A stretch of DNA of 56,603 bases from Bacteroidota bacterium (GTDB lineage Bacteria > Bacteroidota > Bacteroidia > JABDFU01), in NCBI GenBank assembly GCA_013286805.1, contig JABDEY010000005.1, positions 1 to 56,603 on the forward strand, in the 5' to 3' direction. The notes under the pieces were generated by a model. That model ran no database searches. It had not been told where the DNA came from and saw nothing but the letters and a program-made list of their open reading frames with translations. The position numbers and the translations under genes are program-made. This document shows, one piece after another, positions 1 through 10,775 of the stretch. Within the stretch, counting starts at the first letter, position 1; each line of letters opens with the position of its first letter.

Positions 1-756
1 AAACTGGCTGACCTGGGAGGTTTTATAGGAAAATTCGGGTACAAAATAAATTTATCAGGAGATAAGGCTACAGTGGACTCCCTGAATAAATTATTAAAGG
101 ATGTGGAAGGTAAAAGCGAAGCCAATGTTATTTCCCTTTTGACCATTCGCACTATGGCCAAGGCTGTGTACTCCACAAAAAATATAGGACATTACGGTCT
201 CGGTTTTCAATTCTATACGCATTTCACTTCTCCTATCAGACGTTACCCCGATGGGGGCAAGCCTGTAGATGCAGACGAATTGGAACTGGCCTGCAAGCAT
301 TCTTCCGATATGGAAAAACTCGCTGCCGATGCAGAGCGTTCTTCTATTAAATACAAACAAGTGCAGTTCATGCAGGATAAAGTAGGTCAGCAGTTTGAAG
401 GGATGATATCCGGGGTTACGGAATGGGGTATTTTTGTTGAACTGAATGAAAATCATTGCGAAGGGATGATCCGTATTCGTGATCTGAAAGACGATTCGTA
501 TTATTTTGATGAAGATAATTATTGCCTGGTAGGTAGACGAACCAAACGCGCCCTGCGGCTGGGGGATCCCCTGCAGATTGAGATTCGTGGTGCTAATCTG
601 GTAAAAAAACAACTCGACTTTGTGCTGGTTGAAACGCTGCAAAAAAAAACGGTTGGCCAAAAACAGCCGGATGATGCTGGAAACAAGTCCACGATAAAAA
701 ATGCCAGGAAAAACAAGAATTCACATCTGAATGATGAATGGGGATTTGAGATTTAA
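1..756 (+). CDS. rnr: Ribonuclease R, 3' part (5'-truncated by the window; RNB C-terminus + S1 domain)
   Basis: Frame 1 is open from base 1 (KLADLGGFIGKFGYKI...). It contains HYGLGFQFYTHFTSPIRRYPD and an S1 domain (FEGMISGVTEWGIFVEL...CEGMIRI). The usual xxxHRLL segment after RYPD is missing. Confidence 0.92.
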   Translation, partial: KLADLGGFIGKFGYKINLSGDKATVDSLNKLLKDVEGKSEANVISLLTIRTMAKAVYSTKNIGHYGLGFQFYTHFTSPIRRYPDGGKPVDADELELACKHSSDMEKLAADAERSSIKYKQVQFMQDKVGQQFEGMISGVTEWGIFVELNENHCEGMIRIRDLKDDSYYFDEDNYCLVGRRTKRALRLGDPLQIEIRGANLVKKQLDFVLVETLQKKTVGQKQPDDAGNKSTIKNARKNKNSHLNDEWGFEI

Positions 757-775
757 TTTATACTGCATCTGTTCA

Positions 776-1858
776 ATGAACCAGCTCTCTGGTCGGCATA
801 TCATTATTTTATTTCTTCTCCTGAATTTAACCACTGCAGCAACTTCCCAAACCCTCTGGACACATCAGGAGAGTGCTCCGGCTTATAAAGGAAAACAAGA
901 CGATATTTATTTTATCAACCCTGATATGGGCTGGTATGTGAATGGCTCTGGTAAAATCTACAGAACAAGAGACGGCGGAACAAACTGGGCACTTGAATTT
1001 GAAAAGCCCGGTACCTATTTTCGCTGTGTAGGATTCATTGATTCATTAAACGGCTTTGCCGGAAATATAGGAACAGATTATTTTCCAGGCGTAAGTGATA
1101 CTGTCCCGATATACAAAACAACAGACGGAGGAAAAACATGGAGCAGCATTGTTTATAAGGGCCCGGTTATTAAAGGTGTATGCGCCATCGACATTTTAAA
1201 AGAGCCATTTATCAATGCCGGAGTGTTGGATTACAAGTTCCATATTATTGCAGGAGGGCGTGTGGGTTCTCCCGCTTTCATTCTACGCTCAGATGATGCA
1301 GGTAAAACCTGGTCCTCCTCAGACCTGAATAAATACTGCGCATTTATTCTTGACATTAAATTCTTTACGCCAAATGAGGGGCTTGTTTTTGCCGGATGCG
1401 GAAAGGACCTGGAGAAAACACATGCATGTATTTTATATACGGATAACGGAGGAAAAACATGGCAAAAAAAATACGAATCAAAACGCCCTTATGAAATAAC
1501 CTGGAAGGCCTCCTTTCCAACCCGCAAAACAGGCTATGTGACCATTCAGTCCTATGATCCGGACTCAACTGTAGCACAACGCTATGTAGCTAAAACAACC
1601 AATGGAGGGAAAAAATGGAAAGAAATTAAACTGGATGCAGATTATTCCTGTCAGGAATTCGGCATTGGCTTCACAGATGAAAACACTGGTTGGGTAGGAA
1701 CCATGAAAACCGGATATGAAACTCATGATGGTGGTGCCACCTGGAAAAAAGTAGCCATGGGAAAAGCGGTCAATAAAATCCGGCTTTTGAAGACCCCATC
1801 CGGCTTTGTTGGGTATGCGATTGGAAAGGATATTTATAAAATGGAAATAAAAAGATAA
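776..1858 (+). CDS. Secreted BNR/Asp-box repeat beta-propeller protein (YCF48-like)
   Basis: Repeated TxDGGxTW motifs (TRDGGTNW, TTDGGKTW, SDDAGKTW, TDNGGKTW, THDGGATW). A hydrophobic signal peptide follows ATG 776, which is preferred over 731 because 731 overlaps rnr. Confidence 0.8.
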   Translation: MNQLSGRHIIILFLLLNLTTAATSQTLWTHQESAPAYKGKQDDIYFINPDMGWYVNGSGKIYRTRDGGTNWALEFEKPGTYFRCVGFIDSLNGFAGNIGTDYFPGVSDTVPIYKTTDGGKTWSSIVYKGPVIKGVCAIDILKEPFINAGVLDYKFHIIAGGRVGSPAFILRSDDAGKTWSSSDLNKYCAFILDIKFFTPNEGLVFAGCGKDLEKTHACILYTDNGGKTWQKKYESKRPYEITWKASFPTRKTGYVTIQSYDPDSTVAQRYVAKTTNGGKKWKEIKLDADYSCQEFGIGFTDENTGWVGTMKTGYETHDGGATWKKVAMGKAVNKIRLLKTPSGFVGYAIGKDIYKMEIKR

Positions 1859-1866
1859 GCTCCCTT

Positions 1867-3348
1867 CTACTGTATCACAATTTTTTTTTCGTAGCGTTTA
1901 TTATCTGAAACAGCTTCCACAAAGTAGACTCCGGCCGCTAATTTATTCAGTGGGTCAATTTCGATTACTTCCCTGTCTTCCATTACTGTAACTATTCTGG
2001 CATAATATTCTTGTCCATTGCCATTCCTGACCAGAATAGAAATTTTCTGACCGCTCATCCCAAATATGCACACGTAAAATGTGCCACTTGCGGGGTTGGG
2101 GTAAACAGAAATCGTCTTTTCATTTTGAAAATTTACTGAGACCGGATTGCTGTATTTAAATTTACCATCATTATCTACCTGTTTCAGCCGGTAATAGGAA
2201 ATTTCTTTGTACGGGTTGTAATCCACTGCAGTATATTTTATTATTATTGAACTGTTTCCGGCAGCGTTTTGTTGATCGAGATCTGTAAAATCAGTTCCAT
2301 CCGGCGAACGCTGAACCCTAAAATAATCACTATTTGATTCGGATGCAGTTGTCCAAAATAGGTCTACATTATTTCCATCGGGCTTTGCATCAAAATCAAT
2401 AAGTTCTATGGGAAGCTCTCCAACTCCATTGGCAAAACCTATTGTGTGTTGAGAAAAGGAAGTATAACCAGTTCTTTGTGCGTACCCTGTTCCTGCACTA
2501 AAGGTCCTGCCCGCAGAACCCGCTGGAGAAATAGCAGTTACCGCATCATAGGTTAAAAAGCCGGCATACGACGTTGAAGGAAGTGTTCTTTTAAGAGGAC
2601 AAAACATATTATCATTAGCAGCCGACAAGGTAGTATTCTCTACGAATAACTGAACTCCGTAATTTCCGCCCACGTAGGTGTATGCATCGGGGGTAAGGGT
2701 CCAGATGGTCGAATGTCCTACTTGTTCCCCCGCGGTATGAACGATCGGACTTAATTGCTGGGTTGTACTCAGGTTAACATCCGTATTGTTTACAGACTGA
2801 ACAAAGTCCAAAACCGTAGCATCCAAATAGGAAATGCCGGCATTAAGTGCATTATTAACAAACGTAATCTGATGGCGGTTGGTAGAAGCGGTCCCGTCTC
2901 CCAAAGGATACAGATAAGTGCTGGTGTTTGAAGCAATATACCTTCTGAATGTTCCATAAATGAATCCACTTGTGTAAACCAGGCTGGAGGCTACGCTGGA
3001 AGACAATACGACGATATTCGTACTTGTTATTATGATTCCACTTGTCAGCGTAAGCGTATTCGCAACAGTTAAATTTGTGAAACCGCTAAGCGTAATACCA
3101 GATCCGGTATTCGCAATCGTGAGATTATTAAATGTTGTAGCAGCGTTCCCAGCAATATTTTGTGGGCCTGTTCCGGCAAAGGAGACCATTTGTCCCAAAT
3201 CTGTGATGGACCCGTTATTGATAAAGTCCCCGAAAAAGGTTATACGCGTTCCGGAATTTAAATTTACAGCCCCATTGTTTGTGAATTGCTGCTGGGCACA
3301 TAAAGAAAAAGAAAAAAGAAAAGACACACTGTATAGTATAGTATTCAT
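1867..3348 (-). CDS. T9SS type A sorting domain protein (putative adhesin)
   Basis: Signal peptide and Thr/Asn/Gly-rich beta-repeat N-terminus. LPIELIDFDAK...W.TASE.NSDYF...YYRLKQVDNDG Ig-like module. C-terminal VYPNPA...GVYFV...KKIVIQ T9SS CTD. Confidence 0.85.
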   Translation of the reverse strand: MNTILYSVSFLFSFSLCAQQQFTNNGAVNLNSGTRITFFGDFINNGSITDLGQMVSFAGTGPQNIAGNAATTFNNLTIANTGSGITLSGFTNLTVANTLTLTSGIIITSTNIVVLSSSVASSLVYTSGFIYGTFRRYIASNTSTYLYPLGDGTASTNRHQITFVNNALNAGISYLDATVLDFVQSVNNTDVNLSTTQQLSPIVHTAGEQVGHSTIWTLTPDAYTYVGGNYGVQLFVENTTLSAANDNMFCPLKRTLPSTSYAGFLTYDAVTAISPAGSAGRTFSAGTGYAQRTGYTSFSQHTIGFANGVGELPIELIDFDAKPDGNNVDLFWTTASESNSDYFRVQRSPDGTDFTDLDQQNAAGNSSIIIKYTAVDYNPYKEISYYRLKQVDNDGKFKYSNPVSVNFQNEKTISVYPNPASGTFYVCIFGMSGQKISILVRNGNGQEYYARIVTVMEDREVIEIDPLNKLAAGVYFVEAVSDNKRYEKKIVIQ

Positions 3349-3373
3349 GATCCGCTCTTTTAGAAATAAGACG

Positions 3374-4801
3374 TTATTTAAGGGCCAAATTGAGATTTTG
3401 TATAATCATATCCGTGCCATCTGTATTGTTTTCCACCCAGGCTTCTATGTAATCATTTGGTGCTAAGAATACCATACACGAAACGGTAATTGGTCCCTGA
3501 TCAGTATTGTTTTTCAGTATGACCTGCTGTTTTGATCCGGGAAGAATAACTCCGTTTTGAGCTATGTAAAAACTGAAATATTTATTACTACCTGCTCCTG
3601 TGAATGTTGAAGTTAAACTGCAAACAACGATGCACCTCCTTGTTTTTGCTCCAGTGTATGTGAGCCTGTTGCTAACAGGCGAAGTAACCCTGAATAAATT
3701 TACCGCTGTAGTAGTGCCAAGCATTTTAACGGGCATATTGGCCGATGCAATTACAGTGGTAGCAGTGGCTGTTAAATAAAAACTTCCGCTTGCCACATCG
3801 TCTTTTACCGTACTTAACCCAAACGATTCCACTTCCCATAAATCAGAGAAAGTGCCATTTACGTATGTTCCGGTTCCAATAAACATGACTTCTTTGATAG
3901 TGCCTTCTAGAACCGTAGTAATGCCTGTTATATCTAATGCTGTGGCTGCATTTGCAGATAAAGTCACCCTGTCACCACCAAATATCTGGATAATATTGAA
4001 CGTACCAACTAATTTTTCATAGGTGTTTTGATTAGTGAATCCCCAAAGCCCGTTAAATTCTACCAGATTATTATCATTCTGAAACGTTATTCCGTTGGTA
4101 TTGTTTTCAAACACAACCATTCCTAAATAAACAGATCCTCCAAAATTACTTATCAGACCAATGCTGGCCGAATTGGCAACTATGCATTCCTCAATAATCA
4201 AATTCAGAAGCGCACCAGCGGCATTTAAATTAAATACCTGCCCGCCACCACTTGGTGCCGCCAATGTTACATTTTTAATAAAGCCGCCGTGTGCCCCTGT
4301 AAGCAATGCTCCGCCGGCGGGTGTATACAGTAAAATATCATCCACTGCACCCACTCCTCTGATGATTGAATTGTTCAAATCAATCATATTAGTAAGTACA
4401 ACCGTTCCGTTAATCTCATAAATGGTATTTGATAAAAGTATAATCACTCCACTTACAGCCGCCGGAAAATCAGCGGCAGATTTAACCAGAACATAATTAC
4501 TTCTTGCTATGGCGGTACTGATTGCCAGCCATTTCGTGCCATTCCAGAAATAATAGCCATCCGTTACTGTACCTCCGCTGCTGTATATAAGCATTCCTGG
4601 CGGAGTTGTTGCCGTTAAGGGAGCTACTGAGTTAATGCTGTTCAATATAACCCGTGGAGGCAAAAACCCCATGTTAGTGCTTTCCAGCTCAAGCAGGGAA
4701 TTCGCATTAATAGTATTCGGGTTGTTTCCTATTTTAACCTGCGCCGAGGTGGGGAGAATGCTTGCTGTTAGTAAGCATAGGGTGATAATGATGTTTTTCA
4801 T
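3374..4801 (-). CDS. Secreted fibre-like protein with C1q/BclA-CTD-like C-terminus
   Basis: Signal peptide, then the Bacteroidota QVKIG...NSLLELESTNMGFLPPRV motif, a beta-rich middle region and a C-terminal jelly-roll-like segment (LAPNDYIEAWVENNT). The fold call is by resemblance only. Confidence 0.6.
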   Translation of the reverse strand: MKNIIITLCLLTASILPTSAQVKIGNNPNTINANSLLELESTNMGFLPPRVILNSINSVAPLTATTPPGMLIYSSGGTVTDGYYFWNGTKWLAISTAIARSNYVLVKSAADFPAAVSGVIILLSNTIYEINGTVVLTNMIDLNNSIIRGVGAVDDILLYTPAGGALLTGAHGGFIKNVTLAAPSGGGQVFNLNAAGALLNLIIEECIVANSASIGLISNFGGSVYLGMVVFENNTNGITFQNDNNLVEFNGLWGFTNQNTYEKLVGTFNIIQIFGGDRVTLSANAATALDITGITTVLEGTIKEVMFIGTGTYVNGTFSDLWEVESFGLSTVKDDVASGSFYLTATATTVIASANMPVKMLGTTTAVNLFRVTSPVSNRLTYTGAKTRRCIVVCSLTSTFTGAGSNKYFSFYIAQNGVILPGSKQQVILKNNTDQGPITVSCMVFLAPNDYIEAWVENNTDGTDMIIQNLNLALK

Positions 4802-5357
4802 GCGACAAATGTGAGCATGTTCAGTATCGAAAATATTACACGTGTGTTGAAAAAATTTATATCAATCACAGGTTTGTGGTTTTCGCGGGAGCTTGTGAAC
4901 GGGCCTGAATACTGTTATTTCGAGGGGATATGTTTTTATTAATTGCCGAAAATTTGCTTGATAAGCATAAATTTTACAATTTTTTGCGGTGAATTAAGCT
5001 GAATATGGGGGGGGTGAGGGATACGCAGGTTGCCTTAAAAATGGTGGAAGCCCTCTGGTTAGTGGGTCGTGGTGTGTTTCTCTGAATTACTTTTGGATGT
5101 ATTTTACTGGAATCTTACAGGTGTAAGAAATTTGAAAAAGTCTGATATTGATTGCAATTTATTGAGAAGGTTAGATACGCTTAAAAAGTCAGTCATTAAA
5201 CGGGCTCCTACCGTAAACGTCTGGTATATTTTAATACATCGCCTGATGCCTTTGATCGACAATTTTGATAATGAACAGTGAATACTTTGCGAATTATATA
5301 GCCAGGATATAAGTCGCAGAACCGCCAATGAAAATTGGATTTTTCAATTTAGTCAAT

Positions 5358-5744
5358 TTAAGCAGCCTTAATTTCGTCACAATATCGGTAAGATTGAGGT
5401 GGAACGAAATCTTGTATTACTGACTTAGGGTCAAGTGATTTTCGGAATTTATTTACCTTTTTTATTTTAATAGAAAACCCAATACTTTTATTAGAAAAAT
5501 ATTCAAAAAAGGAGAATTTGTCAATCGAACCCACATCATTGAATTCCTCCCAAAGGTTTTTGGGGGTATCAGAAATAATTTCATCAATAGTGAAATATCC
5601 AATAATTCTTTGTTCAGGTGCGCTAGAATAAATAAAAACCTTTTCAATTTCCTGCTTGAAAGATGCTTTTCTAAATTCAACTTTTTTTTCTCCACTTAAT
5701 ATGGCATTTGCATATTTGGGCTTAATTGATAGAATTACGTTCAT
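5358..5744 (-). CDS. Standalone ASCH (PUA-like) domain protein
   Basis: ASCH signature LSIKPKYANAILSGEKKVEFRK (GxKxxExR), followed by IYSSAPEQRIIGYF and a C-terminal PPQSYRY. Confidence 0.88.
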   Translation of the reverse strand: MNVILSIKPKYANAILSGEKKVEFRKASFKQEIEKVFIYSSAPEQRIIGYFTIDEIISDTPKNLWEEFNDVGSIDKFSFFEYFSNKSIGFSIKIKKVNKFRKSLDPKSVIQDFVPPQSYRYCDEIKAA

Positions 5745-5901
5745 AAATGAGTTTTTAGTTTATTGTTTCGTTAAAGTAATCATCATACGAGTATACCATC
5801 CAGAACGAAAGTAGCAAGTACATATTGGCTGCTGACACCACACATTTTTTTTTATTAGTCCGAATCTGTTAATATCTATTAAATTAATTATTGTTAATCA
5901 T

Positions 5902-6942
5902 TCAACCGCTCAAATGAAACAATTTCAAAAAATCTTCCTGCTCCAGATTAAAAAAATCAGCAACTTCCTTAACACTAAATCTATGTTTGCTTTTAAACTC
6001 GGCAATTAAATTTTTTAAAAGTTTTGGTGTTTCTTTTGGAATATCAAGTTCGATTGGCTCTCTTCTCCGAATGTTCAGGGTGTTAAACTGTTCCAGTAAA
6101 TATCTCTTTTGATTATTAGTGATAATATTTAAGTCATTTGCTCGGTAGAGAATTGCTTGCATTGAAACCTTCCATTTACACTTTAGCTCTGCAAGGTCAG
6201 TAATTTTTAGATTTTCATTTAGTTGGGATTTAATGTCCTTTTTTGGCATTAACAATTCTGCCGCAAACAAATTGGCTTCGTGGCCAATATTCCGGTCTGC
6301 CGAAAGATTCGCAAAAGTGTGCATAATGAGGTGACCTAACTCATAAGCTAAACTGAATCTCAAACGATCTCCAAGCATACTTTTATTCAAAACAATAATC
6401 GGCTGTCTTTCATTAGTAAGAATGGTTCGGCTGTCAACTCTTTCAGTACCAAAATCAAAACTTAATACTATAATTCCCTTACTTTCAATTATTTCAATCA
6501 AATCAGCTAATGGTCCCCTCTCAATTCTCCACATTTGTCTTAATTCTTCAGCCACTTTTGCTGGAGAAATCGTTTTTCCCAGATCAAATAAAGGAATTTT
6601 ACTGGTTGGTCTTTTAAGTGCCTGAAATAGTCTTCCAATAATAAGGCGGTAAATATTTATTTGAGCTTCAATTGGAACAATGAGCTTTTGAGGTACATTT
6701 TGCTTTTTTCTGAAATTCAAATTCATTGGAATGGCTTCACCATTTTGATAAAAAAAACTCTTTGGGTAATTCAGTGATTTGCTAAATGCTTCTAATAGAT
6801 TTTCACTAATCGAAGGATTATCCTTTTCGACACGGCTCATTTTAGCAGTAGTAATACTCAATTGTTCAGCCAGAGCTCTTTGAGTAAGAAATCTTGACTC
6901 ACGTCCGAGAGTTATCATTTTTGCGTTCAATTTACCTAGCAT
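5902..6942 (-). CDS. XRE-family HTH fused to an ImmA/IrrE (peptidase M78) domain
   Basis: N-terminal HTH (RESRFLTQRALAEQLSITTAKMSRVE). RLRFSLAYELGHLIMH and EANLFAAELLMP motifs, plus WKVSMQAILYRA. The first His of HExxH is replaced by Tyr. Confidence 0.88.
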   Translation of the reverse strand: MLGKLNAKMITLGRESRFLTQRALAEQLSITTAKMSRVEKDNPSISENLLEAFSKSLNYPKSFFYQNGEAIPMNLNFRKKQNVPQKLIVPIEAQINIYRLIIGRLFQALKRPTSKIPLFDLGKTISPAKVAEELRQMWRIERGPLADLIEIIESKGIIVLSFDFGTERVDSRTILTNERQPIIVLNKSMLGDRLRFSLAYELGHLIMHTFANLSADRNIGHEANLFAAELLMPKKDIKSQLNENLKITDLAELKCKWKVSMQAILYRANDLNIITNNQKRYLLEQFNTLNIRRREPIELDIPKETPKLLKNLIAEFKSKHRFSVKEVADFFNLEQEDFLKLFHLSG

Positions 6943-7158
6943 GATAATAATATCTGCAATTCACATAACGAATATAATAAATTTTTTGTAAAATATCATT
7001 TTTTATTGCAATTTTTATTTAATTTTTAATTACACTAATGTTCATAGATTGAGTAATGCATTGAATAAATTAGTAAATTACCTATTCAAACAATGGTTAT
7101 TCGTTGATTTATGAGAACTAATTAGAAAAATCAGTAATGAAATAGATTTTGTGAGGGC

Positions 7159-8661
7159 ATGAAAGCACTATTAGATACAAATATTATTATCCATCGTGAA
7201 GCTGGAAAAATTGTAAATCAGGATGTTGGAATACTTTTCCGGTGGCTTGATCGTGCGAAGTATGCAAAATGTATCCACCCTATTTCAATTGAAGAAATTA
7301 AAAGGAATCCAAATGTTGCTACTGTTCAGACTTTCATGGCTAAACTTGGTAGTTATGAGCAGTTAGAAATCACTACTCCATTACAAGATCCTGTTAAACA
7401 AGTTTCTATTGAAATGGATGTAAATAGGAATGATTTAAACGATACTATTCTCGTGAATGAAGTCTTTGCTGGTAGAGTTGATATATTAATAACAGAGGAC
7501 AAAAAGATACATACAAAAGCCAAAAAGCTTGGTATACATGATAAAGTCTTTACTATTGATGGTTTTTTAGAAAAAATATTTTCGGAACATCCTGATCTTG
7601 TCAATTACAAAGTTCTTAATGTCCAAAAGAAAAAATTTGGTAACATAAGTTTAAGCGATGAATTTTTCAACAGTCTAAAAGAAGATTATCCTGGATTTGA
7701 TCGCTGGTTTTTAAGAAAAACAGATGATTTAGCCTACGTAACAAGTAATAAGGGAAATGGACTTATATTGTCCTTCCTTTATTTGAAGGTCGAAGGCAAT
7801 GATGAAAATTATCATAATATATCTCCGATATTTCAGCCTAAAAAACGTTTAAAAGTTGGAACTTTTAAAGTAATAAATAATGGCTTTCGGCTCGGCGAAC
7901 GGTTTATAAAGATTATTTTCGATAATGCCTTAGTAAACAAAGTAGATGAAATTTATGTAACAATATTTGATCACAGGGATGAACAGAAACGGTTGATCGA
8001 GTTGATGGAGCAATGGGGTTTCCATTTTTGGGGTATGAAGGGGACTGAAAGGGTATATGTAAGAAATTTTGCCCATACGTTTGATATTAATAACTTACGA
8101 CAACATTATCCATTTGTAAGTAAACGAAGAGGTGTATTTATTGTTCCCATTTATCCGGATTATCATACAGAATTACTTCCAGATTCCATTTTAAATACGG
8201 AATCGCCGCAGGATTTTATTGAAGATTTTCCGCACAGAAATGCAATAAATAAAGTTTATGTATCATGGGCATTAGAACCACATCCAAAAACAGGGGATCT
8301 TATTATATTTTATCGTACTGGTGGTATTTATAAAAGTGTGGTAACAACTATAGGGATCACCCTTGATGTGGTGGAAAATTTCACTGATGTGGATGACTTT
8401 GTTCGTCAATGTAGAAGAGGTAGTGTATTTCCCGAGCCTGAACTAATTAAAATGTGGCAATATAAATCTATTCAGCCATTTATTTTGCGCTTTTTATATG
8501 TATACTCCTTTCCGCACAGAATTAATATGAAAAGCCTAATTGATCTTGGAGTGCTTAAAAGTGTTGAAGATGCTCCGCGAGGATTCAAACCAATAAGTGT
8601 TGCTCATTTTGACGCAATTTTAAACAACACTCAAAGTGATAATAGTTTTATTGTCGACTAA
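7159..8661 (+). CDS. PIN nuclease - GNAT acetyltransferase - EVE/ASCH(PUA)-like fusion protein
   Basis: PIN acidic tetrad D6 (LLDTN), E46, D95 and D114 (LITED). GNAT segment LKVGTFKV..NGFRLGERFIKIIFDNA...EIYVTIF...LMEQWGF. PUA-like C-terminus IVPIYPDYHTELLP...NAINKVYVS...GDLIIFYRT...VVTTIG. Confidence 0.8.
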   Translation: MKALLDTNIIIHREAGKIVNQDVGILFRWLDRAKYAKCIHPISIEEIKRNPNVATVQTFMAKLGSYEQLEITTPLQDPVKQVSIEMDVNRNDLNDTILVNEVFAGRVDILITEDKKIHTKAKKLGIHDKVFTIDGFLEKIFSEHPDLVNYKVLNVQKKKFGNISLSDEFFNSLKEDYPGFDRWFLRKTDDLAYVTSNKGNGLILSFLYLKVEGNDENYHNISPIFQPKKRLKVGTFKVINNGFRLGERFIKIIFDNALVNKVDEIYVTIFDHRDEQKRLIELMEQWGFHFWGMKGTERVYVRNFAHTFDINNLRQHYPFVSKRRGVFIVPIYPDYHTELLPDSILNTESPQDFIEDFPHRNAINKVYVSWALEPHPKTGDLIIFYRTGGIYKSVVTTIGITLDVVENFTDVDDFVRQCRRGSVFPEPELIKMWQYKSIQPFILRFLYVYSFPHRINMKSLIDLGVLKSVEDAPRGFKPISVAHFDAILNNTQSDNSFIVD

Positions 8662-8673
8662 TCGAAAATAGGT

Positions 8674-9738
8674 ATGAATTCAATTGCCATATGGTATGAA
8701 CAAAACGGTAATGCCCCCGGAAATAGACCAGAGTTAGACCTTCATATAAATCATTGGAAACTTAAATTTAATAGAAGTTTTTGGGTTAGAAAATTACGTT
8801 CCCTTTCCACTAAAACAATTGGTCGGAAATGGGAGAGGTTTGTTTTCCAAAATAGCGATTATTTTATGGACTTGGGTCTTAAAATAAAAAATGGCGAAAA
8901 TGTTGAATCTGTTTGTATTTACGTTCCAAATAAATTTACAGACAAAAAAAAACTTGTTGCAGATTTAGGGACAAGACTCTCGGATAAAAGGTTAATTACT
9001 GCCGTTTTTAATGAGCCTTATAACACAACTACGGTAACAGATGGTAAATACTTTTCTGTTATTGAAAACTCTATACCCCTTTTCAATATATATATGCTTG
9101 ATATTGATTGTGACATCAATATTGAAAACAAATATCATGGAACAATTATAAAATTTCCTTTCAAGATTTTCAATAATTTGCCAACCTATTATAGATTTCG
9201 TCTTAAAGCGCCCTTTGTAAATAATTTAAGTTACTTTTTTAAACCCTCAAATTCGTTTTTAGAGAGCGTATATTCGAGTATAGAAATAATTGATTTCAGA
9301 ATTAATGACACCAGAAATCTCGATGTTTCATTAATTGAACATATAAATGAACAGCAAAAGTTTAATCTTGCTCTTGTTCATTATTTTGTAATGAGAAATG
9401 TTAAAGATGAATATGTGGTTTCAAATCAAAATATGAATGGAGTCCGGCAACTAGAAGATAAGACATGGACTTCTTATATAGATGATTCAGAGTATCTGTA
9501 TGAAAAATCGTTTGCGTATCATTTAAAGAGAAAAGCTTCTGAAATAGAAAGATCTGACAAACGTTTTATTGATGAGTTTAGTGCTGTCCTAAAGTTCAGG
9601 TTTGAAGATGGTAAACTCGTACGGTATATTGTTTTTGCAATTATATTAGCAATGCTGACAGAAGTATTTGGGAATGGGCTGTATGACCTTTGCAAGCCAT
9701 ATTTATTAAATATTTATCACTTTGTAATTGGCCATTAA
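8674..9738 (+). CDS. Hypothetical protein with a C-terminal transmembrane helix
   Basis: A 354-aa ORF 12 bp downstream of the PIN-GNAT gene, with hydrophobic YIVFAIILAMLTEVFG near the C-terminus. No family recognised. Confidence 0.75.
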   Translation: MNSIAIWYEQNGNAPGNRPELDLHINHWKLKFNRSFWVRKLRSLSTKTIGRKWERFVFQNSDYFMDLGLKIKNGENVESVCIYVPNKFTDKKKLVADLGTRLSDKRLITAVFNEPYNTTTVTDGKYFSVIENSIPLFNIYMLDIDCDINIENKYHGTIIKFPFKIFNNLPTYYRFRLKAPFVNNLSYFFKPSNSFLESVYSSIEIIDFRINDTRNLDVSLIEHINEQQKFNLALVHYFVMRNVKDEYVVSNQNMNGVRQLEDKTWTSYIDDSEYLYEKSFAYHLKRKASEIERSDKRFIDEFSAVLKFRFEDGKLVRYIVFAIILAMLTEVFGNGLYDLCKPYLLNIYHFVIGH

Positions 9739-9890
9739 ATAATAAAGGCTTGAGTTTCGCTCTCCAAAATGAAATGCCTTTATTTATTTGTAAACAACCA
9801 TAAACAGGCTATTTCCCATACTTTTATAGACACCCTTAGGGAAACATTTTCACATTCTACGAAAAACAAAAGCATTCGCGGGCCGACCGT

Positions 9891-10020
9891 CCACGATTGG
9901 TGTGAACCTGAATTTTTGCGGCCATGTGGCGTGAATTTGTGCGACAAGCAAAAGCTTCAGGTTGGCAATCGTGGGGCACTTTTCTTTGTTACTTTCTTTT
10001 GGGCAAACAAAAGAAAGTAA
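9891..10020. repeat. Structured intergenic element (long interrupted hairpin plus a 13-bp perfect hairpin)
   Basis: CCACGATTG (9891-9899) pairs with CAATCGTGG (9966-9974), with nested AACCTGAA/TTCAGGTT and TTTTGC/GCAAAA. TTACTTTCTTTTG (9989-10001) pairs with CAAAAGAAAGTAA (10008-10020). Confidence 0.65.
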
Positions 10021-10022
10021 GG

Positions 10023-10775
10023 CTATAGCATATTCAGCCTGCTCACCAACTCATCCTTATAAGATCCCCCGATCGGAATTTCCTTCTTCTCATCCTCCAG
10101 TATCAGCACATTGTGATCAATAGCCGTAATCTTATCAATCAGCACAATAAATGAACGGTGCACACGTATAAAGTCTTTAGCTGATAATTTCTCTTCAATG
10201 TTTTTCATGGTAGAAAGTACTGTGTACCGTGCATCTTTGGTATTGATAATCACATAATCCTTCAAAGCTTCAATAAAATAAATATCCTTGGTGCGTATTT
10301 TAACCATTTTTGAGTTTGACTTGACAAATACAACTCCCCTGGTTTCTTTGCCTTCTACAAGGGCGTAAAGCAGATCTCTTTCTTTCTTAATTTCCTTGTC
10401 TTTTCCGTGCTTGTACATGGCCAGTTCAATGGCAGTATGAATATCCACTTCCTTGAAGGGTTTAATAATATAGCCGTGGGGTTGAGTTTCCTTTGCTTTG
10501 TTAACCGTCTGTTCATCAGCGTATGCAGTAAGGTAGATAACAGGAATATCAAAAATATTTTTTATTTCGGCGGCGGCTTCTACGCCACTCATGGCACCTT
10601 TTAACATAATATCCATCAGTACCAGGTCGGGCTGGGATTCTGCAATTAACTGAAGCGCCTGTTCTCCGCTGTTGGTCATGCCTGTTACAGAATAACCCAT
10701 TTTTTTCAGGCTGTTTTGTATGTCTTTTGCGACGATGTTCTCATCTTCTACTATTAATATGCTTGGCTTATTCAT
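10023..10775 (-). CDS. REC-LytTR response regulator
   Basis: ILIVEDE, DLVLMDI, YLTAY and IKPF receiver motifs; LytTR segment IEALKDYV...FIRVHRSFIV...IPIGGSYK. Confidence 0.92.
   Translation of the reverse strand: MNKPSILIVEDENIVAKDIQNSLKKMGYSVTGMTNSGEQALQLIAESQPDLVLMDIMLKGAMSGVEAAAEIKNIFDIPVIYLTAYADEQTVNKAKETQPHGYIIKPFKEVDIHTAIELAMYKHGKDKEIKKERDLLYALVEGKETRGVVFVKSNSKMVKIRTKDIYFIEALKDYVIINTKDARYTVLSTMKNIEEKLSAKDFIRVHRSFIVLIDKITAIDHNVLILEDEKKEIPIGGSYKDELVSRLNML

Follow-up and report, generated by a model that had tools for sequence, protein, structure and literature searches.

The 56,603-nucleotide stretch of Bacteroidota DNA analysed here (contig JABDEY010000005.1; hereafter, the window) carries at positions 5358-9738 a block of four open reading frames, arranged two per strand and divergent around a 216-bp spacer (Table 1). 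The gene coordinates, the spacer and the AT-richness described in an earlier note on this DNA were all reproduced, with a G+C content of 0.318 for the block versus 0.395 for the whole window, and values of 0.305-0.342 common to all four genes. In the divergent intergenic region, promoter-like sites were not above the level of shuffled sequences and only weak repeats were present; the 157-bp spacer contained no terminator-like site. According to tblastx synteny with two same-genus genomes (G404:C66 and G401:C9), window positions 1-765, the 3' end of RNase R, are there directly joined to position 10023 onward, a LytTR regulator, so a segment of about 9.3 kb is missing from both. The four-gene block constitutes the AT-rich right half of this segment, and the remainder comprises three genes that resemble surface-protein genes and have an ordinary G+C (0.408). 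The block had been placed between core-type genes: the AT-rich block is confirmed, but not the direct core-gene flanks, as the absent segment is larger and includes the surface-protein-like genes. Neither tRNA genes, Rfam matches nor flanking direct repeats were found at the block ends; its suggested island-like, sporadic nature fits both the low G+C and the missing counterpart in these two relatives.

Table 1. Coordinates of the features at the locus, as positions of the window.
Feature	Position	Strand	Basis or remarks
Segment of ~9.3 kb without counterpart in two same-genus genomes	766..10022	.	tblastx synteny
ASCH protein, 128 aa (PDC-M11B / 'GevA'-like; ZmASCH family)	5358..5744	-	Pfam, PADLOC, PHROGs
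Spacer, HTH-peptidase gene to ASCH gene	5745..5901	.	157 bp, G+C 0.28
XRE-HTH + M78 (ImmA/IrrE) protein, 346 aa, RmrA-like	5902..6942	-	Pfam, PADLOC, NCBIfam, PHROGs
Divergent intergenic region	6943..7158	.	216 bp, G+C 0.213; presumed promoter/operator region
PIN-GNAT-PUA-like protein, 500 aa (PDC-M11A / PIN form of 'GevT')	7159..8661	+	PADLOC, AF2, folds
PIN domain	7159..7572	+	residues 1-138
GNAT-fold domain, non-canonical motif A	7609..8076	+	residues 151-306
PUA-like (EVE/ASCH-type) domain	8119..8643	+	residues 321-495
Predicted tail-anchored membrane protein, 354 aa, unnamed family	8674..9738	+	beta-rich domain 1-311, helix 315-353

The 500-aa protein, the putative effector (hereafter, the effector), matches the PADLOC model PDC-M11A end to end (6.6e-210, residues 1-499), and three folds were recognised in its AF2 model (pLDDT 90.8), namely PIN, GNAT and PUA-like; together with the ASCH and the HTH plus Peptidase_M78 domains detected by profile in the opposite-strand genes, this agrees with the domain architecture previously proposed. 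By structure alignment, the PIN domain resembles VapC2 (3zvk, Z 13.5, residues 1-134) and VapC21 (5sv2, Z 13.3, residues 1-138), with a weak Pfam PIN_3 match (0.0034), and residues D6, E46, D95 and D114 are present in the window copy and kept in 32-36 of 43 PIN-bearing alignment rows. The GNAT fold aligns with Naa60 (5icv, Z 13.9) over residues 151-306, and E212, K232, Y266, T268 and E297 are invariant in all 54 alignment rows; the canonical acetyl-CoA motif A ([RQ]xxGx[GA]) occurs in 0/102 fused family members, and the fused GNAT was described as lacking this motif and probably inactive (Matelska et al., 2017; PMC5499597). For the C-terminal domain, the best fold match is ZmASCH (5y6b, Z 14.8 over 324-492), and its profile link to the family of the ASCH partner is weak (39%, E 3.1e-4). 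The protein gave no Pfam EVE match, and PF01878 was found in 1 of 120 relatives among the matches listed. A word-indexed search retrieved 6634 relatives, and clustering at 50% gave 1807 representatives. Of 400 other genomes from the class, 10 have the family, as do none of 5 from the genus. The TacT/AtaT toxins share the GNAT fold with the effector (TacT 5fvj was among the Foldseek matches, E 4.4e-4); however, the effector has no RHH/DUF1778-type antitoxin and no canonical motif A, carries extra PIN and PUA-like domains, and is not a member of that class.

The 128-aa protein matches Pfam ASCH (1.7e-5), PADLOC PDC-M11B (2.4e-51, over residues 1-124) and phrog_3136 (3e-41). A profile of 54 homologues identified ZmASCH (5gus, E 1.3e-24) as a clear sequence homologue and the nearest studied relative, whereas no match to YqfB appeared up to an E value of 1. 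ZmASCH, from Zymomonas mobilis (PDB 5GUQ/5GUS), binds nucleic acids and in vitro acts as an Mg-dependent ssRNA nuclease; its residues Y47 and S128 are required for RNA binding and cleavage (Kim et al., 2017; PMC5615036). They align with Y39, which is invariant, and the conserved S118 of the window protein, whereas K53 of ZmASCH aligns with Q45, Q being the consensus. All family-invariant residues of the effector, the ASCH protein and the membrane protein are present in the window copies.

The 354-aa protein (AF2 model with pLDDT 93 and pTM 0.88) is predicted to be tail-anchored, since it has a single C-terminal helix (residues 315-353) and no N-terminal signal-like segment. It had no match in Pfam, PADLOC, NCBIfam or PHROGs, its fold matches were middling (ribophorin 6s7o_E, Z 11.2; M1 aminopeptidase N-domains, Z 8-9.5), and the modelled fold points to no function. 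An HMM of the family recovered 88 of 100 cluster members and none beyond the cluster, and a hydrophobic C-terminal segment is present in all 88 full-length members. In 47 of the 80 effector-seeded loci its gene adjoins that of the PIN-GNAT-PUA protein, in line with the membrane coupling proposed in the earlier note. When the membrane protein served as the seed (50 loci), ASCH was present in 42 and a GNAT gene, either fused or stand-alone, in 43; the remaining 7 are contigs of ≤3.1 kb, hence every judgeable locus has a GNAT gene. Stand-alone GNAT genes (Pfam Acetyltransf_10/1) were found in 16 of these loci, and because they are homologous to the effector GNAT domain (hhalign 95.9%, E 6.4e-9), the trio of ASCH, membrane protein and GNAT is kept over two architectures. 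As judged from these gene neighbourhoods, the membrane protein is a true third component of a module subtype.

Base acetylation has been proposed for such genes (Iyer et al., 2013, as cited in Bell et al., 2020, PMC7641849, and Matelska et al., 2017, PMC5499597), and the earlier note had likewise put forward an acetyl writer/eraser logic. Spelled out, the GNAT domain would write a mark of the N4-acetylcytosine type, the PUA-like domain would read it, the ASCH protein would erase it in the manner of YqfB/EOLA1, and the PIN domain would act. The invariant polar residues E212, Y266 and E297 of the GNAT fold, the canonical motif A in 13 of the 16 stand-alone GNATs, and the constant company of a GNAT gene for the ASCH-type protein in these cassettes are consistent with this scheme. 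It is weakened, however, by the motif's absence from all 102 fused members and by the kinship of the ASCH partner to ZmASCH instead of YqfB, the reported ZmASCH activity being ssRNA cleavage (PMC5615036); furthermore, an acetylated substrate is known for no family member. The scheme is not supported, and we consider it unlikely.

On the evidence of sequence comparison, three of the four genes belong to a widespread and already catalogued candidate anti-virus/toxin-antitoxin module, here in an unusual order. ASCH is present in 77 of the 80 effector-seeded loci, directly downstream of and overlapping the effector gene in 73, and in the other 3 the sequence ends ≤330 nt from the effector gene; ASCH is therefore an obligate partner of the effector gene. 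PDC-M11 is one of 145 PADLOC phage-defence candidates and is not validated (Payne et al., 2024, preprint; 10.1101/2024.01.29.577857), in keeping with the statement of the earlier note that no validated system was recognised. Its two genes are matched end to end by the window proteins, but the model comprises two genes only, whereas in the window M11A and M11B are encoded on opposite strands and separated by another gene, and the recurrent membrane protein has no PADLOC model. That PIN-GNAT-EVE/ASCH pairs were known to comparative genomics also holds: operons of (PIN)-GNAT-EVE and ASCH, optionally with AAA_17, were filed under toxin-antitoxin systems by Bell, Wolf and Koonin (2020; PMC7641849), and PIN_15/PIN_17 are the names given to the same architecture by Matelska et al. 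(2017; PMC5499597). The loci examined here share with the Bell operons the three-domain protein and its ASCH partner, the optional AAA_17 gene in related loci, and the occurrence of the PIN form with restriction-modification (R-M) genes and of the PIN-less form with prophage; AAA_17 and HNH, accessory genes in some module loci, are absent from the window. The main text of Bell et al. contains neither 'transmembrane' nor 'IrrE' and mentions 'membrane' five times, each for an unrelated matter; neither the membrane partner nor an M78 regulator is described there.

The lambdoid Escherichia phage PhiR47_2 harbors a PIN-less pair directly after cI, which we take to be the position of rexAB. Its record (PV340567.1) labels the pair as GevT toxin and GevA antitoxin; our literature search returned neither an experiment on any module member nor a paper combining 'GevT' with 'antitoxin', and the names are record annotation. 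GevT is 38% identical to effector residues 154-462 (E 4e-47) and GevA 37% identical to the window ASCH (E 4e-30), and the genes of the phage pair overlap; the PIN domain and the membrane protein are lacking there. These labels, the overlap of effector and ASCH genes in most loci, the classification by Bell et al. (2020; PMC7641849) and the sporadic distribution of the family would also suit simple addiction, in which a toxin-antitoxin module keeps the mobile segment stable but plays no part against phages. Conversely, type I/III R-M genes or other PADLOC candidates lie within 6 kb in 35 of the 80 effector-seeded loci, such embedding in or beside defence candidates being the reason why PADLOC lists PDC-M11; the location after cI also speaks against mere addiction, and a membrane partner with AAA_17 and HNH accessories is unusual for a simple pair. 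We regard pure addiction as very unlikely, while toxin-antitoxin and defence roles are mutually compatible.

The gene that sets this block apart encodes the 346-aa protein, which matches Peptidase_M78 (5.9e-20), HTH_31 (0.00099), the transcriptional regulator family phrog_2439 (1.8e-80), the NCBIfam spr1629-type repressor/antitoxin (5.3e-39, under that model's cut-off) and, over its full length, 14 PADLOC models of RmrA (best 1.4e-60). RmrA is the antitoxin of RosmerTA (Millman et al., 2022, preprint), with which the 346-aa protein shares the HTH plus M78 architecture; however, the partner genes differ, none of the four window genes matches the RmrT models at E up to 0.1, and the HELGH motif of RmrA reads YELGH in the window. 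With this altered HExxH motif, a protease switch by the regulator is doubtful.

Co-occurrence, which the earlier note had proposed to examine, was found for the ASCH, effector and membrane-protein genes but not for the regulator, and a conserved four-gene system is not borne out. Of 130 module loci, just 3 have an RmrA-like gene nearby, and each time its placement differs from that in the window (co-directional, at the head of the entire gene string); no other of the 130 loci has the window gene order. Among 22 loci of regulator homologues, none has ASCH, PIN-GNAT-PUA or membrane-protein genes within 1.5 kb; the regulator's closest homologues are flanked by conserved genes that the window lacks, namely a downstream ORF of 68-96 aa and a divergent upstream gene of ~170 aa. 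The HTH-M78 gene is not normally part of the PDC-M11 module. The block could thus represent two side-by-side units, a three-gene module shuffled by inversion or replacement and an orphan RosmerTA-type gene without a module role, left over from another module or regulating a mobile element; consistently, the best regulator homologue (69% identical) lies on a contig that differs in length from all those carrying the closest effector or membrane-protein relatives. Against this, the regulator gene sits exactly between module genes and has the 216-bp divergent region in common with the effector operon, ASCH follows it with no terminator-like site between, all four genes have the same low G+C, and in three other loci an RmrA-like gene heads the string. 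We consider juxtaposed units possible but rather improbable, and the involvement of the regulator in the module has about even odds.

The AT-rich block, the sporadic family, the R-M and PADLOC neighbours and the phage-borne PIN-less pair provide the context of a conflict system. With somewhat better than an even chance, in our judgement, the block represents, in rearranged form, the membrane-protein subtype of the mobile (PIN)-GNAT-EVE plus ASCH conflict module, with the HTH-M78 gene as a local addition. In the effector, the PUA-like domain would bind a ligand of nucleic-acid nature, perhaps a modified base, the PIN domain would cleave RNA, and the GNAT fold would serve acyl transfer or ligand binding alone. 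The small ASCH protein may restrain the effector in an antitoxin-like fashion or act as its partner, the membrane protein would act together with both, and a phage upsetting this balance would lead to growth arrest or abortive infection. DarTG is a reversible-modification pair, an analogy for a toxin that modifies its target and an antidote that is itself an enzyme; here, we infer the toxin and antidote roles from one database label alone, that of the phage record. The HTH-M78 gene would occupy a site often held by a small XRE regulator, such as the small XRE gene upstream of the module in 5 loci, or by an ASCH-fused HTH, fusions of this kind being described by Bell et al. (2020; PMC7641849) and Matelska et al. 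(2017; PMC5499597). Its product probably represses both divergent operons, in which case ASCH would be expressed with the regulator and not translationally coupled to the effector; ASCH is divergent from the remaining module genes in 4 of the 50 membrane-protein-seeded loci.

Finally, in loci with an effector 60-79% identical to the window's, the ASCH proteins share only 40-45% identity with the window ASCH but 57-59% with one another, and the best match of the window ASCH (55%) adjoins an effector of just 27% identity. Since ASCH and effector identities disagree across loci, the window ASCH may be non-cognate for the 500-aa effector.

The four open reading frames (ORFs) that the earlier note had placed in an AT-rich block were recovered at the same positions by ORF calling (see table), and encode an ASCH protein, a regulator with helix-turn-helix (HTH) and M78 peptidase domains, a predicted PIN-GNAT-PUA effector and a tail-anchored membrane protein. 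The G+C content of the block is 0.318 (0.305-0.342 per gene) vs 0.395 for the window, and falls to 0.213 in the 216-bp spacer between the two divergent operons. The window is a complete contig of an assembly that is 56% complete. In two genomes of the same genus, the end of the RNase R gene directly abuts the LytTR regulator gene, which identifies ~766-10022 as a variable segment of ~9.3 kb, with the four genes as its AT-rich right half. At the block ends there was no tRNA, no Rfam match (E up to 0.1) and no flanking repeats, other than weak ones. Promoter-like sites (22 vs 23.6 in shuffles) and terminator-like sites (2 vs 2.8) were not in excess. The -7 motif of Bacteroidetes promoters is TANNTTTG; it had no exact match in the two intergenic regions, nor was it enriched window-wide (56 vs 70.6 expected).

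Features of the variable segment and its borders (positions in nt of the window; empty cells, not given)
Feature	Position	Strand	Basis or remark
End of RNase R gene (rnr)	1-765		abuts LytTR gene in two same-genus genomes
BNR/Asp-box repeat protein	731-1858		absent at this site in two same-genus genomes
Protein with T9SS C-terminal sorting domain	1867-3348		absent at this site in two same-genus genomes
475-aa protein, no family	3374-4801		absent at this site in two same-genus genomes
ASCH protein, 128 aa	5358-5744	-	ORF call
HTH-M78 regulator, 346 aa	5902-6942	-	ORF call
PIN-GNAT-PUA effector, 500 aa	7159-8661	+	ORF call
Membrane protein, 354 aa	8674-9738	+	ORF call
~117-nt stretch, hairpin at its end	9900-10020		
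LytTR regulator gene	10023 onward		

The variable segment is flanked by rnr on one side and by a LytTR two-component pair on the other, and its 766-5357 part, with three genes, is likewise missing in the two same-genus genomes. Just ahead of the LytTR gene stop there is a ~117-nt stretch which looks like a small dispersed repeat, with at least 6 other copies at 79-84% identity in three relative genomes (G404, G405 and G408) and one copy in the window's own incomplete assembly.

The effector matched the PADLOC candidate model PDC-M11A (PDLC04422) nearly end to end (E 6.6e-210; residues 1-499 on profile positions 1-500 of 501), while Pfam detected PIN_3 alone, below threshold. An AlphaFold2 model built from 54 diverse relatives (pLDDT 90.8) displayed three folds: a PIN fold (residues 1-138) similar to VapC toxins (Z 12.7-13.5; VapC2 3zvk, Z 13.5 over 1-134), a GNAT fold (residues 151-306) similar to Naa60, Naa50 and NatD (Z 13-13.9; best, Naa60 5icv, Z 13.9), and a PUA-like fold (residues 324-492) matching ZmASCH (5y6b, Z 14.8). 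These fold matches bear out the PIN, GNAT and EVE/ASCH-type architecture first proposed for this protein. The Pfam EVE model itself was unmatched by the effector, and PF01878 occurred in 1/120 relatives among those listed. All four acidic PIN residues (D6, E46, D95 and D114) are present in the window, each being kept in 32-36 of 43 PIN-bearing rows, and residues E212, K232, Y266, T268 and E297 of the GNAT domain are invariant (54/54 rows). Motif A (R/Q-x-x-G-x-G/A), which binds the acetyl-CoA pyrophosphate, was found in none of 102 fused family members when searched anywhere in the protein, whereas 13/16 stand-alone GNATs of related cassettes possess it. Cofactor binding by the fused GNAT is nevertheless possible, given that G242, G246 and E247 are nearly invariant despite the missing motif.

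The ASCH protein matched Pfam ASCH (1.7e-5) and the PDC-M11B model (PDLC04424; 2.4e-51, residues 1-124). A profile of the ASCH partners matched ZmASCH (E 1.3e-24 over profile positions 4-126); searched against PDB sequences, it retrieved the ZmASCH family alone, with no YqfB chain at E up to 1. ZmASCH has been reported to bind nucleic acids and to cleave single-stranded RNA in vitro in a Mg-dependent manner (Kim et al., 2017; PMC5615036). Two of its cleft residues, Y47 and S128, align with Y39 and S118, both conserved, and its K53 is not conserved, being aligned with Q45. Taken together with the motif A results, the scheme of an acetyl writer and eraser advanced in the earlier note is a possible one that these tests do not favour; with the canonical cofactor motif missing from the fused GNATs and present in the free ones, the label "acetylation-based" should not be taken for granted.

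The genomic context of the module was studied in 130 loci: 80 around relatives of the effector in species genomes (the best 80 of 433 confirmed) and 50 around relatives of the membrane protein in metagenomes. These loci are the best matches of scans, with relatives that are not independent and ORFs called mechanically. An ASCH gene was present in 77/80 effector loci, directly downstream and overlapping in 73, and the remaining three loci broke off at most 330 nt from that of the effector. The window does carry a separate ASCH gene in the same locus as the effector, but not as the usual adjacent, co-directional and overlapping pair, since it is encoded on the opposite strand at a distance of 1414 bp, the HTH-M78 gene lying in between. 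The prevailing orders among the 80 loci were membrane protein > effector > ASCH (41) and effector > ASCH (31), followed by effector > membrane protein > ASCH (3) and effector > ASCH > membrane protein (1), with 4 loci being cut. Among the 50 membrane-protein loci, ASCH was found in 42 and the effector in 28 (tblastn), and in 16 a stand-alone GNAT of ~165 aa (Pfam Acetyltransf_10/1) followed the membrane protein gene. This protein is homologous to the GNAT domain of the effector (hhalign 95.9%, E 6.4e-9), and a GNAT gene, fused or free, was present in 43/50 loci, the other 7 being contigs of at most 3.1 kb. The presence of either GNAT form with ASCH and the membrane protein defines these three components as the conserved set, occurring in two architectures.

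Accessory genes of the module loci included AAA_17 (11/12 such loci also have the membrane protein), HNH_5 and, upstream in 5 loci, a small XRE gene. Type I/III restriction-modification (R-M) genes or other PADLOC candidates were located within 6 kb in 35/80 effector loci, namely 21/33 of those lacking the membrane protein vs 14/47 of those having it, which points to two subtypes, the first lying within R-M systems and the second self-standing. The four-gene layout did not recur: the order of the window (ASCH <, regulator <, effector >, membrane protein >) had no other case in the 130 loci. An ASCH gene divergent from the remaining genes was found in 4 loci, all of the stand-alone-GNAT type. 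Within the window, searches for remnants of a second ASCH, AAA_17, HNH, a small HTH gene or a stand-alone GNAT (E up to 1) gave chance-level matches only.

The membrane protein had no Pfam or PADLOC match. Its structural model (pLDDT 93) consists of a beta-rich domain followed by a single long C-terminal helix, with best fold matches, middling and non-catalytic, to ribophorin I (Z 11.2) and to M1-aminopeptidase N-terminal domains (Z 8-9.5); the ESM Atlas returned unnamed clusters only. Polar positions that are invariant in this protein comprise H24, N113, R174, D207, N211, R214, R258 and E261. By blastp, the 354-aa protein of the window had relatives in only 6/80 effector loci, and clustering of all ORFs joined these relatives to a family of ~340 aa adjoining the effector in 47/80 loci. 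An HMM (A2) made solely from database homologues recovered 88/100 cluster members and nothing outside the cluster, with matches in 36/80 loci, and a hydrophobic C-terminal segment was present in 88/88 full-length members. As a single-protein query, the window's protein was found in 0/400 genomes. With regard to phages, no PHROGs family corresponded to it, and tblastn with a member from a prophage context gave no match in 50,697 phage records.

The regulator displayed a Peptidase_M78 domain (5.9e-20) and a weak HTH in Pfam, and matched 14 models of RmrA, the antitoxin of RosmerTA (best 1.4e-60 over residues 5-341). The window thus shares with RosmerTA an RmrA-type HTH and zinc-peptidase antitoxin, but lacks the adjacent RmrT, as no RmrT model was matched by any of the four proteins at E up to 0.1. 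Given the diversity of RmrT families, a novel type of toxin could stand beside the RmrA-like gene. Such a gene was found in only three module loci (2/80 and 1/50; L014, L016 and L096), where it heads a co-directional string that continues with a small ORF, HNH, AAA_17, the effector, the membrane protein and ASCH. Conversely, 20 out of 400 other genomes sampled from the phylum contained a regulator homologue (E up to 1e-20), and at none of their 22 loci was a gene for ASCH, the effector or the membrane protein located within 1.5 kb. The regulator family comprised 1476 matches, the best relative being 69% identical, and no homologue was listed on contigs sized 9601, 6249 or 5929 nt, the contig sizes of the closest module relatives, a correspondence that is heuristic only. 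The RmrA match, the missing RmrT and the rarity of the regulator gene near the module together indicate an RmrA-like protein that forms no recognisable RosmerTA pair and is not a regular module member; we regard it as a local addition with an uncertain role.

The HExxH zinc motif of the window regulator reads YELGH (residues 200-204). Among 18 sequences at least 47% identical, window included, the first motif position was occupied by Y (13), H (3) or F (2), and H was found in 8/8 distant homologues. This substitution may mean that the peptidase is altered or has lost its activity. The closest homologues (L133-L135, L153, L154, L014, L016 and L096) have a conserved ORF of 68-96 aa downstream which is missing in the window. 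Several of them also have a divergent ~170-aa gene of no family upstream, and more distant homologues have a conserved gene of ~165-175 aa downstream instead.

The module is widely distributed: a word-indexed search gave >6,600 close relatives of the effector, with 1,807 representatives at 50% clustering. Identity to the closest relatives was 73-77% for the effector and 62-67% for the membrane protein. The ASCH protein is only 40-45% identical to its counterparts in loci where the effector shares 60-79% identity with that of the window, although these counterparts have a median identity of 57-59% to each other, and its best match (55%) adjoins an effector that is only 27% identical. This suggests that the ASCH gene of the window was replaced, or that it diverged fast after uncoupling. 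The effector family was found in 10/400 other genomes of the class and 0/5 of the genus, a patchiness on the strength of which a role in housekeeping RNA modification was rejected.

Relatives were found in 16 phage records. In the lambdoid coliphage PV340567.1 (5404-6832; L170), a PIN-less GNAT-PUA/ASCH pair annotated as "GevT toxin" and "GevA antitoxin" is located directly downstream of cI, which in phage lambda is the position of rexAB; GevA is 37% identical to the ASCH protein of the window. A literature search gave nothing relevant on GevT/GevA and no paper combining "GevT" with "antitoxin". Further, in five loci (L113, L114, L122, L126 and L129), ~360-aa PIN-less forms preceded by the membrane protein gene are flanked by genes for a CI-type repressor and an integrase, a setting that fits carriage by a prophage or integrative element.

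These genes have been noted before. On (PIN)-GNAT-EVE operons, Bell, Wolf and Koonin (2020; PMC7641849) state that "almost all" contain ASCH and often an AAA_17 ATPase, link the PIN form with type I R-M and PIN-less forms with prophages, note that none of the modules has been characterised, and credit Iyer et al. (2013). The same proteins appear as PIN_15/PIN_17 in Matelska et al. (2017; PMC5499597), where the GNAT is considered to lack motif A and to be probably inactive. The PDC names derive from a preprint with 145 untested candidates, selected through "guilt by embedding" within systems of the BREX, DISARM and type I R-M kinds (Payne et al., 2024; 10.1101/2024.01.29.577857). Our literature search found the term "GNAT-EVE" in Bell et al. 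only, and no experiment on the PIN-GNAT-EVE/ASCH module.

In our view the best reading of the module is a conflict system with three components, of the PDC-M11/GevTA kind and carried on mobile DNA; it is probably toxin-antidote-like, with a predicted PIN RNase as effector and a mechanism that we infer. Very widespread, and found both in R-M islands and in prophage immunity regions, it has as frequent third component a membrane protein whose family has no name, kept with ASCH and a fused or free GNAT. Given this frequent partner, two-gene PDC-M11 constructs may miss a part of the system in more than half of Bacteroidota-type loci. We would only tentatively go further, and propose as a possible but rather doubtful reading that the real unit is formed by ASCH, the tail-anchored membrane protein and a GNAT-type protein, that current catalogues list a two-gene pair where the unit would have three components, and that the window holds a version with ASCH uncoupled under an RmrA-type switch. 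A nucleic-acid reader/nuclease module would in this case act at the membrane, where it could, e.g., sense entering phage nucleic acid or release a membrane effector. In the window variant, the ASCH "antidote" would no longer be coupled to the effector but would share an operon with the RmrA-type HTH-peptidase regulator, and the antidote/effector balance would then be set by a transcriptional switch instead of translational coupling. As a natural "uncoupled" variant, the window could help to decide if ASCH functions as an antidote, and the crystal structure and reported RNase activity of a close relative of this partner offer ready point mutants.

Lastly, in three effector loci (L035, L044 and L063) the effector is split or shortened (316 + 156 aa, 251 aa and 85 + 426 aa, respectively) and the ASCH gene is intact; gene decay or errors in assembly may account for these effectors.
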